Source of the DNA: Candidatus Babeliales bacterium
Lineage (GTDB): Bacteria; Babelota; Babeliae; Babelales; JANWKD01
Direction of reading: 5' to 3'
DNA length: 64,000 bases
Assembly: GCA_963762115.1 (NCBI GenBank)
Contig: CAVXJH010000006.1
Location: forward strand, 192,001 to 256,000
Positions 57,441 to 64,000 of the stretch are shown here, in pieces. The position numbers and the translations under genes were made by a program. The first letter of the stretch is position 1, and each line of letters begins with the position of its first letter. The notes below the pieces were generated by a model, which was not told the origin of the DNA, did no database searches, and saw only the letters and a list, made by a program, of their open reading frames with translations.

Positions 57441-58796
57441 TTAACTTTTTTTGTCACGAACATCAACGCCCATTTTGTGCAAAATGTCACGCAGCTCATC
57501 AGATTTTTTCCAATCTTTGTCAATGCGTGCTTGATTTCTTTCATCAATAAGTTTTTGTATTTCAGGGGTGATAGTAACTTCTTTTTCTTTTAAAGAGAGT
57601 AAGGTTAATCCAAGTATTTGTTGCAAGAAAGCTTTTACTAAACATGCTTCATGTTTATTTTCAGCAAGATACGTGAGATTTTCAAAAACAACACCAAACA
57701 TTCCTGGCGTATTAAGATCATCGCATAAAAACGTGAGCATTTTTTTTACAATCACCGATTCTTTGATTGCATGTTGGTCTTCTTTTTGGCATTCAAAGCG
57801 TGCAAAGAAGAGGCACAGTTTTTGGTAACTTTTTTGTAGCATTGCCAGATCTTCATGAGAAAAATCAAGAGGAGCACGATAATAGTGATTCAGGATAAAA
57901 AAACGCAAAACCATTGGATCAAATTGTTTGCAGGTGTCACGAATAGTGAAAAAATTACCCAAAGATTTAGACATTTTTTCTTTATCAATACGCACAAAAG
58001 CATTATGCATCCAATAGGTTGAAAATGGTTTTCCGTATAAAGATTCTGACTGTGCAATTTCATTTTCATGATGAGGAAACATGAGGTCCATGCCGCCGCC
58101 ATGAATATCAATATGTTCTCCCAAATATTTTTTTGCTAAGGCAGAACATTCTATGTGCCATCCGGGCCTTCCCCATCCCCAAGGACTTTCCCAAAAAGTT
58201 CCTTTTTCTTCATTTTTCCATAAAGCAAAATCAAGAGGGTTTTTTTTAATAGTATTGATTTCTACGCGAGTGCCTGCTTCAAGATCGTTTATTTTTTGTT
58301 TTGAAAGTTTGCCGTAATCAGGAAAGCTATCAATGCTAAAGTAAACATCGCCGTCAACAACATAGGCATTGCCTTGTTTAACAAGATTTTTAATAAAGGT
58401 AATTATTTCTTGCATGTTATCAGTAACGCGTGGTTCAAACGTAGGCACCAAGCAATTAAGAGCGTTCATATCTTCTTGAAATGTTTCAATAAACGTTGAA
58501 GCAACTTGGTGATAGAGCGTTTTGTCGCCATATTCTTTCTGAGCTCGTAGTAGCAATTTGTCATCAATATCGGTAAAGTTACGACAATAATTGACTGAAT
58601 AGCCAAGAAACATAAGAAGTCGATACATCACGTCAAAAGTTATGTATACTCGTGCATGACCAATATGAGCATAATCATACGGAGTAATACCACAAACATA
58701 TATTTTTAATGGGTGGTTTGGTTGAGGAGTAAAAAGTTCTTTTTTATTACTGAGTGTGTTGGTGATAGTTATCATTTGCATTCTCGAGGGTTTCAA
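57441..58796 (-). CDS. cysS: Cysteine-tRNA ligase
   Basis: YVCGITPY, HIGH, DFALWK, GRPGWHIECS and KMSKSLGN motifs. Confidence 0.98.
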   Translation of the reverse strand: MKPSRMQMITITNTLSNKKELFTPQPNHPLKIYVCGITPYDYAHIGHARVYITFDVMYRLLMFLGYSVNYCRNFTDIDDKLLLRAQKEYGDKTLYHQVASTFIETFQEDMNALNCLVPTFEPRVTDNMQEIITFIKNLVKQGNAYVVDGDVYFSIDSFPDYGKLSKQKINDLEAGTRVEINTIKKNPLDFALWKNEEKGTFWESPWGWGRPGWHIECSALAKKYLGEHIDIHGGGMDLMFPHHENEIAQSESLYGKPFSTYWMHNAFVRIDKEKMSKSLGNFFTIRDTCKQFDPMVLRFFILNHYYRAPLDFSHEDLAMLQKSYQKLCLFFARFECQKEDQHAIKESVIVKKMLTFLCDDLNTPGMFGVVFENLTYLAENKHEACLVKAFLQQILGLTLLSLKEKEVTITPEIQKLIDERNQARIDKDWKKSDELRDILHKMGVDVRDKKS

Positions 58797-58949: not shown

Positions 58950-61418
58950 ATGACAGCATCGTCTATCAAAAAAATTAACTCTACAACGGTATTATTTATT
59001 TCTTGTGCTTTTTTCTTGGTACAATCTACCTTTTTGTTTGCAATGCAACCAACAGAAGAATTGTCTCAAGATGTTGAGCAGAATGAGGTTTTTGATGATG
59101 ATATTTCTATTATCAAGCAACGACGAATTCATGATATTATTGTTGAAGGTAACCATCATGTGAGCACTGAAGCAATTTTTAATAAGATTCCTTATCATAA
59201 GGGTGAGATATTTTCTCCGTTGAAATCTAGATCACTTATTAATAATGTGATGCAATTAGGTTATTTTAAAAATGTACAAATCTTTGGCAAGAACGTTGAT
59301 GATGGTATTGATTTGTATGTTGTCGTTGTTGAAAAAAAACTATTAAAAGAGGTTATTTTTAAAGGTAATAAACACTTAACCGAAAAAGAAATTACCGCCA
59401 AAATTCCCTTTGCTGATATTCCGGCCTTGGATGAATCAGATTTAAAAAAATATTGTATCGCGATAAAAAAACTGTATCGAGATAAAGATTATCATCAGGC
59501 AACTGTTGAAGCTACTCTTGAAGATCATGATGAAAAAGTTACCGCGATCTTTACTATTAATGAACAAAAGAAAACAGCAGTAAAGCGCGTATTTTTTGAA
59601 GGCAATAAGGCTTTTGATAGCAAAAAATTACGCAGTATAATTTTCACTCGTGAAGATTGGGCTTTTGGTTTCTTAGATCGAGCGGGAAGTTATCAACCTG
59701 AAGCAATTGAATCAGATAAACATGTGTTAGAAAATTTTTATCAAAGTAATGGTTATCTTAATGCAAAAGTGACTAAAGTTGACATTGTTCCTGATGAAGA
59801 TCCTCATTATGTACAAGTTACTTTTCATATTGATGAAGGCGATCTTTATACGCTGAGTTCAATAACGGTGCAAGGCAATGACGCTGTTTCAGAAGAACAA
59901 ATTCTTGTGCGTTTGCCCATTGCTGTTGGCGATCTCTATTCAAAAGATAAAATACGGCAAGCAATTGAAACAATCAGATTAATCTTGGGCGAGTTTGGTT
60001 ATATTTATGCCGATGTTGAGCCATCAATTGAGCCCGATGATGAAAATAAAACAGTAAGTTTGTCTTTCTTTACTGAGTTAGGTGATAAAGTCTTTTTGGA
60101 AAGAATTAAGATTATTGGTAATGAAAAAACGCGCGATAAAGTAATTCGTCGTCAGTTACTCTTTGATGAAGGCGATTTATTAACTACGCAAAAACTTGAA
60201 GAATCAAAGACGCGTGTTGAAAATCTTGGTTTCTTTGATCAACAAGGTGGTGTCAGCTGGAAATATGACCGTACAACAAAGGATTCTGCCGATTTAAAAC
60301 TCTATGTTAAAGAAATCAAAACAGGAAGACTTGATGCACAAGTTGGGTTTGGTGGTTCGCCAAAAGATTTACAAAATCCAACTGAATCATTAAGAGTTGG
60401 AGGATCTCTTTCTGATACTAATCTTTTTGGTCTTGGTATCGGCTTTAATTTAAGTGGTGAAATTTCCAAACAAGAGCGTCAATTACTCTTTAATATAACT
60501 GAACCGTGGCTTTTCGATCGACCAATTTATGCAGCGTTTGATGTTGCATTCAAAAAATCTGTCTACGATGATTTTCAGTTGACCAAAGATGAAGTTAAAG
60601 AGCAACTTGCAAGCGGATCATTAAGTTTAGGTTTTGTTGCAGCAAGTTTAAATCAAACAAGATTTGTGTGCCAAGCTGGCTACGAAGGATTGCATTATAA
60701 AAAGCAACCTGTTGCTGATCTTGGTGCCAATGCTGACCCTAAAGAACAGGCAGAATTTCAACGAATTTTAGATAAGCGTTTCCCACAAGGTAATTTTCCA
60801 TGGCTTGGTAGTCAGGCAGCACAAGATTTTAGAAATCATCCATTGCATCCAAGTCGTGGGTATCAGTGGCAAGTTACGACCAGAATTGGTATTCCCAATG
60901 ATGCATTTGGTTTTTGGAAATTTGATTGTGATGCAAGTTATTATACACCAATTATAGGTGAACGAGATTTAGTGTTTTATCTTCACTCACATTTTGGTTG
61001 GGTAACTGCTTTTATGGATAAATTAATTCCATTCAGAGAGTTGTATCATATTGGTGGTCCGTCAAGTGTGCGCGGCTTCCTGTTTGGTGAAATAGGGCCA
61101 ACATTCAAAGGTGTTGATTCAATTGGTGGTAAAAAAGCATTTTGGTTAAATGCTGAACTTATCTTTCCTGTAGCGCCAGATTTTTCGATAAAAGGTGTTC
61201 TTTTCTATGATGGTGGTGCGGGATGGGATACGCCCGACGCAGATCAAATTGCAAAAAAACGACTCAAGAATAATCATTTTAGTTATAGGCATTCAGTTGG
61301 GTTTGGTGTGCGTATTTATCGTCCAACACCTATTCGTATTGATTGGGGTTTTAAGCTTGATCGTAGAAAAGGTGAGAAAGCGAGTGAAGTTCACTTAAGT
61401 TCTTCCTATGATTTCTAA
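58950..61418 (+). CDS. bamA: Outer membrane protein assembly factor BamA
   Basis: POTRA repeats (GNxxT.D.VIRR), VRGF loop-6 motif, and C-terminal barrel ending in F. Confidence 0.96.
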   Translation: MTASSIKKINSTTVLFISCAFFLVQSTFLFAMQPTEELSQDVEQNEVFDDDISIIKQRRIHDIIVEGNHHVSTEAIFNKIPYHKGEIFSPLKSRSLINNVMQLGYFKNVQIFGKNVDDGIDLYVVVVEKKLLKEVIFKGNKHLTEKEITAKIPFADIPALDESDLKKYCIAIKKLYRDKDYHQATVEATLEDHDEKVTAIFTINEQKKTAVKRVFFEGNKAFDSKKLRSIIFTREDWAFGFLDRAGSYQPEAIESDKHVLENFYQSNGYLNAKVTKVDIVPDEDPHYVQVTFHIDEGDLYTLSSITVQGNDAVSEEQILVRLPIAVGDLYSKDKIRQAIETIRLILGEFGYIYADVEPSIEPDDENKTVSLSFFTELGDKVFLERIKIIGNEKTRDKVIRRQLLFDEGDLLTTQKLEESKTRVENLGFFDQQGGVSWKYDRTTKDSADLKLYVKEIKTGRLDAQVGFGGSPKDLQNPTESLRVGGSLSDTNLFGLGIGFNLSGEISKQERQLLFNITEPWLFDRPIYAAFDVAFKKSVYDDFQLTKDEVKEQLASGSLSLGFVAASLNQTRFVCQAGYEGLHYKKQPVADLGANADPKEQAEFQRILDKRFPQGNFPWLGSQAAQDFRNHPLHPSRGYQWQVTTRIGIPNDAFGFWKFDCDASYYTPIIGERDLVFYLHSHFGWVTAFMDKLIPFRELYHIGGPSSVRGFLFGEIGPTFKGVDSIGGKKAFWLNAELIFPVAPDFSIKGVLFYDGGAGWDTPDADQIAKKRLKNNHFSYRHSVGFGVRIYRPTPIRIDWGFKLDRRKGEKASEVHLSSSYDF

Positions 61419-61594
61419 AGATAAAGTAATTCTAAAGTGAATTTGATGAGTAGGAACACGTGAAGTAAAAAATATTTTCATGAGAAAAAAAGCATTAATA
61501 ACAGAAATGTCATTGCTGTATGTGTTCAGAGTTTCGGTGAATAATTTTTTACACAAAGTGGCAATCAAAGTTGAATTGTAAGTTTTTTAATTCC

Positions 61595-61966
61595 TTAAAC
61601 GGGTATGCCGGTTTCTTTCAACAATTCGGATGGTACTTTGCCATTCAAACCTTGATGCGGCCGATGTTCATTGTGATAGAAATTATATCCAAGAACAGCA
61701 TCTTTTAATTCATCGATTGTGTTAAAGATGGATCCTTCAATAACTTCATCATCAAAAGAACGCCAAAATCTTTCAATTTTTCCATTTGTTTGTGGTCTAT
61801 AAGGCAAAGTTCTTCGATGTTTAATCGCAAAATGAAGTAGCAATCGTTCAAAAGGATGATTTTTTAATTTTTCTGGCGTTGAACAAAACTCAGCACCATT
61901 ATCTGTCAGAGCTTCATCAAAGGTGATATTATATCGTTGGTTCATATGTAAAATAATATCCATCAT
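61595..61966 (-). pseudogene. IS481 transposase, C-terminal part
   Basis: LTDNGAEF, PYRPQTNGKIERF and HNEHRPHQGL (integrase core); in frame with the N-part once IS110 is removed. Confidence 0.92.
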
Positions 61967-62013
61967 AGTGATTGTGTTAAAAGTCAAATATTTTTTAATA
62001 AAGCTAAACAATA

Positions 62014-62955
62014 TTAAGCTTTACATAATTCACCTTTTTTTAGTAAAGAATTAGCAATCACAATAAGTTTATGCATAATAGCTACGATAGCTATTTTAAA
62101 AGGTTTTTTAGAAGTTATTAAACGATCGTAAAGTTCCTTTAATGGGAGATGATATTTAATAGTTGTTAATGCACACATATAAAGCATATTTCTTGGAATA
62201 GTTCTTCCACCTCTGATGAATTTTTTACCCTTATAACTTCCACTTTCATTCTCATAAGGACAAACACCAATGAGTGCTGATACTTTTTTATTACTTATTT
62301 GACCAAGTTCAGGAACGAATGATAATAATGTTGCAGCTGAAGTTTTGCCTATTCCTGGAATTGACTCCAAAATTTTTGATTTTGTATTTAATTTTTCATC
62401 TTGCTGAATTAAATCTTGTATCTTTAAATCAATTGATTTGATTTCGCACTCTAAGATTTTGATAAATTTCTTTATACTTGATGCATATAATGCATGAGAT
62501 GGATGTTTAGATCTTGTTTTTTCGGCAACTAAAAATTTTACCAAGTCATTTTTACGATTGACCAAAGCTTGTAATTTTTCTTGATTTTCGCTTTTGTTCA
62601 TTATCTCATAATCAGGAGAATTTTTAGAAGCAAATTCAGCAATTTTTCGAGCATCAATTTTATCCGTTTTGCTTTTGCAGCCACTAGCAACAATATAGCC
62701 TTTTATTCTTCTTGGATCGATGATCCAAAGATAATAACAATTTTTTTTTAATATTCGAGCAAGTAATTTTTCATACCCACCAGTTGCTTCGCATGCAATT
62801 TGTTCGATATCATATTTAACTAATTCTTTAATGATCTCCGTTATTCCAACTTCTGAGTTTGATACTTTTAAAGATTTTCCTATTGGATGGATATAAACAT
62901 CTAAAGTGTTTTTTGAAATATCGACACCTATAAATACTTTTGATATATTTTTCAT
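62014..62955 (-). CDS. IS110-family DEDD recombinase (bridge recombinase), 313 aa
   Basis: GVDISK, CEATG and KTDKIDA (DEDD); IPGIG; ESG catalytic Ser; GGR..R..LYM. Confidence 0.96.
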   Translation of the reverse strand: MKNISKVFIGVDISKNTLDVYIHPIGKSLKVSNSEVGITEIIKELVKYDIEQIACEATGGYEKLLARILKKNCYYLWIIDPRRIKGYIVASGCKSKTDKIDARKIAEFASKNSPDYEIMNKSENQEKLQALVNRKNDLVKFLVAEKTRSKHPSHALYASSIKKFIKILECEIKSIDLKIQDLIQQDEKLNTKSKILESIPGIGKTSAATLLSFVPELGQISNKKVSALIGVCPYENESGSYKGKKFIRGGRTIPRNMLYMCALTTIKYHLPLKELYDRLITSKKPFKIAIVAIMHKLIVIANSLLKKGELCKA

Positions 62956-62959
62956 AAAT

Positions 62960-63163
62960 ACCTCTGGCTTGTAGACATGCGAGATCGTATGTACTTGATA
63001 CGTCTCTAGTGATTGTTCGAGGTCATTTTTGTATAAGCTGATAGTCTCAAACTATGACACGGTCCTTTGAGACCAAGCTTGACACGAGATCTATCAGCTT
63101 CTCAAACAATTAATTTCAAAACAACTGATCATAAATTAACAAAATTTAGCTTTAAAATCATTT
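62960..63163 (-). ncRNA. Bridge RNA with target-binding and donor-binding loops
   Basis: Target loop closed by aagctgatag/ctatcagctt; donor loop closed by acctc/gaggt. Donor guides ACAAUCACU and UACAAG match the element's own circle junction. Right target guide GUCAUAG matches the insertion site. Confidence 0.88.
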
Positions 63164-63177
63164 TGATTTAACATACA

Positions 63178-63801
63178 AGCAAAGGCAACATCAATTGCCT
63201 TTAAAGATTCAATTACTTCGACCCAAACTATTCTCGAAAAATCATCAATTACACCCAATACAAAATATTTCTTTTTAGGTTCAGATTGTACAATTCCCTT
63301 AGGTAGGTAATGGCAATCTATATGAGCTAATGATCCTGCAAATGTTCTCACAATCTTTCTTTTTTCCTCTTGCACTAATTTAGTTAATTTAGAAACACCA
63401 TATTTTCGTAAAGTTCGATACACTGAACTTGCAGAAAAACCCTTTTTAATCAAAGGATTTTTTTTGAGGGCCGCAGCGATAACATACCTATTTAAACCTG
63501 ATTTTCGGTATTCCAAAATTTTTTTTACAAGGCTATCATCTGCAAGTGGAAGTTCCTCAAATTTAGGTTTAGGACCACGCCTTATAGGCAGTAGAAGTTC
63601 GGGAATTCCCTGGGCCGCTTTATAGCGCCCATAAAGTTTATAAAAATTCTGGAAACAGAGCTCCCTGGCTTCAAAAAATTCTCGAACAAACCTAAATTGT
63701 GGATGCTTTTTTGCCTTAACAAGCTCATATTCTTCTACATATTTTAGCATGTACTTTATTGAATTACTAACCAAAGTAGGATACGATGTATTTATACTCA
63801 C
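63178..63801 (-). pseudogene. IS481 transposase, N-terminal part
   Basis: AGGAG RBS and GTG start; HTH-like region, RRGPKP, SVYRTLRKYG, AHIDCH and VIDDFSR. Confidence 0.92.
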
Positions 63802-64000
63802 AAAAGAACTCCTGTGTTAAAATTGTTAATATTTGCGTATTCTAATTCTAACTCTGATTTACTTTTGTGGGTATTTTTTTATTCACCGAAATTATGAACT
63901 TTTACAATTGCGAGCCAACATTGTTGGCGTGGCAACCCAGCATATAAAATGCTATTAATTTTTTCCTATAAAGTGAATTAAAAAATATTTGTTAATGTAA

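Follow-up and report, generated by a model that had tools for sequence, protein, structure and literature searches.

IS621 from Escherichia coli (PMC11208160, PMC11208158; PDB 8WT6) is the bridge-RNA system against which the element described here was mainly compared. Its promoter is described as being arranged across the junction of the circular form, as in the joined ends of the present element, and thousands of IS110 orthologues were used in the same study (PMC11208160). The handshake bases of bridge RNAs are defined in PMC11208158 and in the report on ISCro4 (10.1101/2025.05.14.653916). As to target choice, half-match insertion has been reported for IS621, with matches to one arm driving insertion in vitro, and in the genome data of that preprint right-target-only events are described as unscorable, as the right guide of IS621 has just 4 nt (10.64898/2026.08.31.748434). 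For ISPpu10 from Pseudomonas putida, the right guide is reported to be strict, the distal left guide lax and the core-adjacent base again strict, and a 5' hairpin in the target is reported to raise efficiency (10.64898/2026.03.19.712850).

Sequence analysis of a 64,000-nucleotide stretch of DNA, hereafter the window, identified on its minus strand (63179-61967) an intact insertion sequence of the IS110 family, with the bridge-RNA layout of IS621, composed of a 224-nt left end, a single ORF and a 47-nt right end, with CT closing both ends (Table 1). With a probability that we put at roughly 88%, this is an intact IS110 element of IS621 layout, likely guided by a bridge RNA, whose window copy is likely a recent off-target insertion into the transposase gene of an IS481-family element. 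The neighbouring genes, encoding cysteinyl-tRNA synthetase (57441-58796, minus strand) and BamA/Omp85 (58950-61418, plus strand), are housekeeping genes unrelated to the element.

Table 1. Features of the IS110 element and of its insertion site (positions are those of the window)
Feature	Position	Strand	Basis or remark
Host IS481-family element	61517..63906	-	28-nt terminal inverted repeats 61517-61544 and 63879-63906
Left flank: mismatched left target 63186-63180, also 3' arm of inverted repeat	63180..63202	-	
IS110 element with both CT cores	61967..63179	-	Repeat unit 1211 bp; 5 copies at least 99.9% identical, distinct flanks
Left CT core	63178..63179	-	Copy comparison
Right donor arm 63177-63173, overlapping predicted -10 box 63175-63170 (circle-junction promoter)	63170..63177	-	Sequence
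Predicted bridge RNA, ~208 nt	62956..63163	-	Start inferred from -10 box; folds, covariation
Predicted target-binding loop: outer stem, internal loop, inner hairpin	63035..63100	-	Fold z -4.07; covariation
Left target guide TGTCAAGCT	63076..63084	-	Repeat target 8/9, flank of window copy 3/9 (core included)
Right target guide GTCATAG	63052..63058	-	6 Watson-Crick + 1 wobble with repeat target and window flank alike
Target-loop handshake bases	63050..63051	-	First U complementary to donor position 7
Predicted donor-binding loop	62961..63023	-	Folds, compensatory changes
Left donor guide ACAATCACT	63008..63016	-	9/9 identical to left donor arm + core
Right donor guide TACAAG	62968..62973	-	6 contiguous pairs
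Donor-loop handshake bases	62966..62967	-	First C complementary to target position 7
Putative ribosome-binding site in closing stem of donor loop	62961..62965	-	Sequence, folds; function inferred
IS110 recombinase, 313 aa, D12/E56/D98/D101 + S238	62014..62955	-	PF01548, PF02371, NF033542, IS621 alignment
Right end: predicted -35 box 61987-61982, left donor arm 61975-61969, right CT core 61968-61967	61967..62013	-	
Right flank: right target arm, full pairing with right target guide	61962..61966	-	

Element ends, recombinase and predicted bridge RNA

The genome (1.53 Mb in 7 contigs, 34% GC) holds five near-identical copies of the IS110 element, two of them identical to the window copy and two differing from it by one base. 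All five part from their flanks at the same CT. Moreover, the empty site with a single CT is present in three intact IS481 copies, and CT stands at both ends of the five filled sites. The ends of the element are thus fixed by direct comparison, exactly where the sequence-only reading had drawn them, and insertion is scarless at a 2-nt core, as in the IS110 family. When the two ends are joined, a -35 box and a -10 box come to lie on either side of the core with 17 bp between them, a motif-based sigma-70 promoter prediction that is absent as such from the integrated form. The motif combining the -10 box and the right donor arm is also present in homologs, where it served to call element ends. 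None of the sequencing runs listed as carrying the element is an RNA run. In contigs from five DNA runs, one run's contig skips the 1211 bp, as the intact IS481 copies predict, and this run may come from the source sample; at a depth of 2-7, no contig contained a circle joint, which is too low a depth to count either way, and none crossed the IS110/IS481 junction, which is no evidence for or against it.

The DEDD RuvC-like and Tnp20 domains of the IS110 family (PF01548, 65.7 bits; PF02371, 56.4 bits) lie together in the single ORF, and the protein matches NCBIfam NF033542 at 190 bits, above the cut-off of 140. Its residues D12, E56, D98, D101 and S238 align with the catalytic residues D11, E60, D102, D105 and S241 of IS621, and are kept in 119-120 of 120 proteins among the matches listed, query included. 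The recombinase had been described from the sequence as intact and compact; the first holds, as the whole ORF was found with its catalytic residues, and the second is hardly a distinction, as 313 aa is only 13 aa below the 326 aa given for IS621 (PMC11208158).

Folding predictions agree with the earlier proposal that the non-coding left end forms two internal-loop hairpins, as in the IS621 group: the predicted fold of this end is better than that of 200 out of 200 shuffled sequences (z -3.28). Taken by itself, the target loop reached z -4.07 against shuffles, and the donor loop z -1.55, with 13 of 200 shuffles equally good; a 5' hairpin predicted ahead of the two loops scored z -0.51, with 64 of 200 shuffles folding as well. 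An IS621-like structure, written from the window element's own fold, was then scored across 22 related left ends (22 of the 23 elements defined below, L033 being left out). In this alignment 88% of cells were paired, as opposed to 31-39% in slid controls, and 25 of 34 pairs had changed on both sides, compared with a shuffled mean of 13.1; the outer stem of the target loop contributed 11 such pairs out of 15. RNAalifold independently returned 19 pairs, 14 of them with compensatory changes, and did not recover the inner target hairpin in the related left ends. A search of the window against Rfam gave no match.

The putative ribosome-binding site of the recombinase coincides with the 3' strand of the stem closing the donor loop (62965-62961), an overlap shared by most of the 22 left ends in the alignment. 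On read-through transcripts, folding of the predicted bridge RNA could damp recombinase translation. Weak expression from integrated copies of IS621 has been reported (PMC13626964).

Guides and their covariation with the flanks

All four guide strings of the sequence-only reading were recovered from the minus strand at the positions it gives, and the pairing of GUCAUAG with the insertion site CT-ATGAT, by 6 Watson-Crick pairs and 1 wobble, is as it had been described. Target position 7, which is complementary to the donor-loop handshake base, is G at all five insertion sites.

To place these guides in a wider context, homologous loci were collected by tblastn at E<=1e-40. Out of 38 loci, 36 were kept and grouped into 23 elements; L016, which duplicates L003, and L031, for which a left end was looked for in vain, were dropped, L006-L008 fell below the threshold, and one match in G073 came without a locus. 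Element ends in this set were called by motif, rather than from empty sites, with a manual choice between candidates in four loci. Guide-flank matches were evaluated with 5000 permutations; each element contributed a single site, and the best register was sought in shuffled pairs just as in true ones. With kinship ignored, 21 elements gave a total of 111 left-target matches (null 64.4+/-5.4, maximum 84), and the right-target total, again over 21 elements, was 78 (null 46.9+/-4.3, maximum 67). Also with kinship ignored, 21 of 23 elements have a donor-loop handshake base that is complementary to target position 7, the null being 9.3+/-2.2. None of the 5000 permutations reached the observed left-target, right-target or handshake value, a significance that is overstated, as related elements are not independent. 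Taking the window site in place of a repeat site (see below) to represent this genome barely alters these values. In addition, the donor guide mirrors donor variants: 14 of 21 elements match at 9/9, three at 8/9 and two at 7/9, and the remaining two match at 1/9 in the aligned register, with an 8-nt match one base over.

Overall, the relatives display target guides that covary with their targets, donor guides that follow the circle junction and a handshake at target position 7, as in the IS621 group. Domains, folds and guide covariation together bear out the earlier reading of an IS621-type bridge architecture with intact parts and readable guides, and the covariation of guide and target in nature supports, indirectly, that the system may be reprogrammable. 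By analogy with IS621, the right and left ends would join upon excision to form a circle, thereby building the promoter across the core; the left-end RNA would bind the recombinase and pair, through its donor loop, with the junction and, through its target loop, with a CT site; and strand exchange at the core, by S238 and the DEDD site, would be driven forward by the handshake bases.

A dominance of the right arm as a rule of the clade was not supported in the 20 other elements: left matches are at most 3/7 in four of the 20, and right matches at most 2/5 likewise in four of the 20. Several single features of the relatives were also recorded. In L018, L023 and L026 the right guide is perfectly complementary to the ATG-type repeat described below; in L026, moreover, a short sequence upstream of the element recurs directly downstream of it, and the right-guide match is poor. 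L021 carries an 18-nt tandem duplication of the start of its left end, and in L029, L030, L038 and L034 (~41% identity) the core departs from CT at one end or at both (AT/CT, TT/TT, CT/TT).

The repeat target and the insertion into IS481

Four of the five IS110 copies sit in an intergenic, GC-rich repeat of ~50 bp, at the site TGGCAAG-CT-ATGGC, and at all four the left target guide matches 6 of 7 non-core bases. The cognate target is this repeat, and not the window site. A profile search of the genome, whose assembly is 95% complete, returned 14 full-length copies at E<1e-3; the profile covered only the part left of the core and was seeded on the four filled copies. Occupancy follows the right arm: all 4 full-length repeats with ATG after the core are filled, as against none of the 10 others (Fisher p 0.001), and one partial copy is likewise empty. 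In 8 of the 10 empty repeats the left arm is identical to that of the filled copies, and in one a single base of the right arm is all that distinguishes it from the 14-nt site of the filled copies. That the empty repeats are spared for lying in genes was considered and rejected: no more than 2 of these 10 copies overlap ORFs of at least 100 aa, so that selection against gene disruption is no explanation. Between one filled repeat and another there are 1-5 differences in 45 nt, a greater divergence than among the IS copies (0-1 differences from the window copy), which favours separate insertions. In the proposed mechanism, the element would be programmed for this intergenic repeat, and only those copies with ATG after the core would be used.

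The repeat is palindromic and has ~13 shorter relatives besides the 14 full copies (flanks of L001, L009, L013, L015), and look-alike repeats flank elements in G164, G220, G243 and L019, which suggests a possible phylum-wide family of REP-like repeats serving as landing sites for IS110 elements. A related strain in run X3 (a single contig at a depth of ~4) shows one change in each target guide (63055 and 63083); these are two of the three differences listed in a 307-nt piece, the left flank being the same repeat. When the X3 right flank was examined for a change matching that of the guide, it showed 2 mismatches in 8 nt to both the ATG-type and an ACG-type repeat, and so fits either (single contigs, depth <5).

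The fifth copy, that of the window, interrupts the 314-aa transposase of an IS481-family element at codon 191, leaving the parts 63750-63180 and 61966-61595. The host element (~1179 bp) has four copies, in the window, twice in C3 and in C5, the last being near-identical to the interrupted one. At the window site, GCCTTTG-CT-ATGAT, one of the 7 non-core bases agrees with the left target guide, and there is one further wobble. The earlier reading, right in that the guide string ends in the core, had passed over this poor match to the copy's own left flank. Full pairing of the right arm (4 Watson-Crick pairs and 1 wobble), the core and the core-adjacent G, which serves left guide and handshake alike, are all kept. 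The IS481 site counts as a right-arm match since the U at 63057 in the right guide pairs with G or A.

How this copy came to lie where it does can be read in several ways. It might have been inserted without the target loop, by donor-loop-only recombination or a host pathway, the match to the right guide being due to chance; for IS621, off-target events through the donor loop alone have been reported, as have unassigned ones (10.64898/2026.08.31.748434), and the left guide is nearly unpaired here. Nevertheless, outside the core the site agrees with the donor at 0 of 7 left-arm and 2 of 5 right-arm positions, and each of its 5 right-target positions is paired by the right guide, as happens at only 778 of 148,302 CT sites, which makes a route of this kind very unlikely. 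Less likely still is that the junction, known from one assembly only, is a chimera of two repeats, with only the four repeat-borne copies being real: even though both elements are multicopy (five IS110, four IS481) and the left guide is mismatched, each of the two junctions lies exactly at one CT, the IS481 reading frame continues behind the insertion with nothing missing (191 + 123 = 314 aa), and a mis-join would exert no selection for right-guide pairing together with the handshake G, a combination found at only 203 of 148,302 CT sites. Finally, the sequence-only reading had taken the window site as the cognate target of the guide, which would imply a left guide that is degenerate or acts in another register. 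The right guide does fit the IS481 site as well as the repeat (4 Watson-Crick pairs and 1 wobble each), and a few homologs also have weak left matches; however, the left guide matches 6 of 7 bases at the repeat and 1 of 7 at the window flank, four of the five copies are in the repeat, and an identical IS481 site is empty in 3 of 4 copies, whereas none of the four ATG-type repeats is, leaving this as the least likely of the three. A slipped, bulged register of the left guide at the window site was also considered by eye, and dropped as post hoc. The window copy is thus likely an off-target insertion, a half-match through the right target as judged from the paired positions.

Guide pairing alone fails to explain the choice of site, as eight empty sites are better matched than the window site, with 5-6 of 7 left-guide positions and a paired right arm. 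Directly before the core, and ending one base short of it, lies a perfect inverted repeat whose two 8-bp arms are 63202-63195 and 63188-63181. Among 199 distinct right-arm-matched G-CT sites, the window-site hairpin is third by folding energy, and the window site is one of two with an 8-bp perfect stem, the joint-longest. The left arm is tied up in a hairpin at 12 of the 199 sites, all five insertion sites being among these 12; in turn, one of the eight better-matched empty sites has at least 5 left-arm bases in a predicted hairpin, a weak one (-1.9 kcal/mol). In the proposed mechanism, the insertion would be a right-arm half-match, possibly aided by a DNA hairpin that is placed in register with that of the repeat.

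A bolder reading, which we consider improbable, is that a hairpin tying up the left target arm can replace pairing of the left guide; with all cognate repeats filled, the element would then have jumped to a site offering the right arm, the core, the handshake base and a hairpin. The idea comes from a single event, noticed after the fact, and is called into question by its not being general in the clade and by weak right matches being as common as weak left ones. Across 21 elements, a clade-wide target hairpin was not supported (mean z -0.16, against -0.15 at random CT sites), and whole-site folding gave a mean z of -0.93 over 19 elements against -0.59. Moreover, in ISPpu10 a hairpin is reported to have failed to rescue lost left pairing, with 10 of 11 inversions inactive (10.64898/2026.03.19.712850); at the window site, by contrast, a hairpin is present and left pairing is nearly absent. 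If the idea were true, DNA structure would allow the off-targets of bridge recombinases to be predicted, in conflict with what was found for ISPpu10.

Insertion also brought the IS481 hairpin next to the T-rich start of the left end (63203-63170, minus strand), forming the only terminator-like site in 61900-63400. Judging from its sequence, this site could insulate the window copy from IS481 read-through.

Relatives and comparison with known systems

Relatives of the element occur in 19 of 261 genomes of the phylum (E<=1e-40), and 276 proteins match the window recombinase at E<=1e-60; the clade is therefore common, and the type of system is already known structurally. One 70%-identical protein is labelled Candidatus Dependentiae, which, together with the small genome of 34% GC, suggests a host in the Babelota, described as intracellular bacteria of protists (PMC12172432). 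None of eight candidate stretches in viral contigs encodes a relative. Literature searches returned no paper joining Dependentiae with IS110, nothing relevant on Babelota, palindromes and insertion sequences, and, for an IS110 inserted into an IS481 with a bridge RNA, only the half-match preprint (10.64898/2026.08.31.748434). In the searchable Durrant supplements neither the 14-nt donor nor the lineage names were found, and the clade may still be in the published data.

The architecture is ordinary; the value of the locus lies in a natural record of on- and off-target discrimination by a guide. It amounts to a built-in specificity experiment, in which 14 near-identical repeats have been sorted by the right guide and one natural off-target has been added; off-target insertion in general limits bridge editing in practice.

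Elements of the IS1111 group, which use seekRNAs, carry sub-terminal inverted repeats and a guide RNA in the right end. The window element shares the protein family with them (PF01548 + PF02371), but its guides are in the left end and its right end has 47 nt. An end-to-end inverted repeat was also searched for, and none was convincing among the 25 longest of 147 pairs, of which a single one, an AT-rich 20-mer at 70%, runs from end to end. Given the left-end guides, the short right end and the lack of a convincing inverted repeat, membership in this group was rejected.

With ISCro4/IS622 (10.1101/2025.05.14.653916; PDB 9T56; E 1.7e-32) the element shares the described architecture and the 14-nt recognition of target and donor; ISCro4 is reported as 88% identical to IS621, whereas the window element is a distant orthologue known from sequence. 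Compared by description, it resembles ISPpu10 in inserting into a palindromic repeat, with the left target arm in a 5' DNA stem-loop, and in the pattern of a strict right guide, a distal left guide that is lax and a core-adjacent base that is strict. As for IS621, both recombinases combine RuvC-DEDD and Tnp-serine parts (E 1.1e-32 over residues 8-308), at ~32% identity (98 identities, by hand count on the printed alignment), and both systems have a CT core, a left-end RNA with target and donor loops and a handshake at position 7. The IS621 donor quoted in the sequence-only reading was found in the Durrant supplement; it is identical to the window donor at 11 of 14 positions, including the whole right donor arm. 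On the other hand, the RNA predicted here has ~208 nt and that of IS621 177 nt, the left donor guide of the window element, unlike that of IS621, spans the whole core, and the repeat used as target is another one. The native right target guide pairs over 7 nt here and over 4 in IS621, a length that makes right-target-only half-matches testable. As a recently active orthologue with this long native right guide, the element is both a data point and a reagent alongside IS621.
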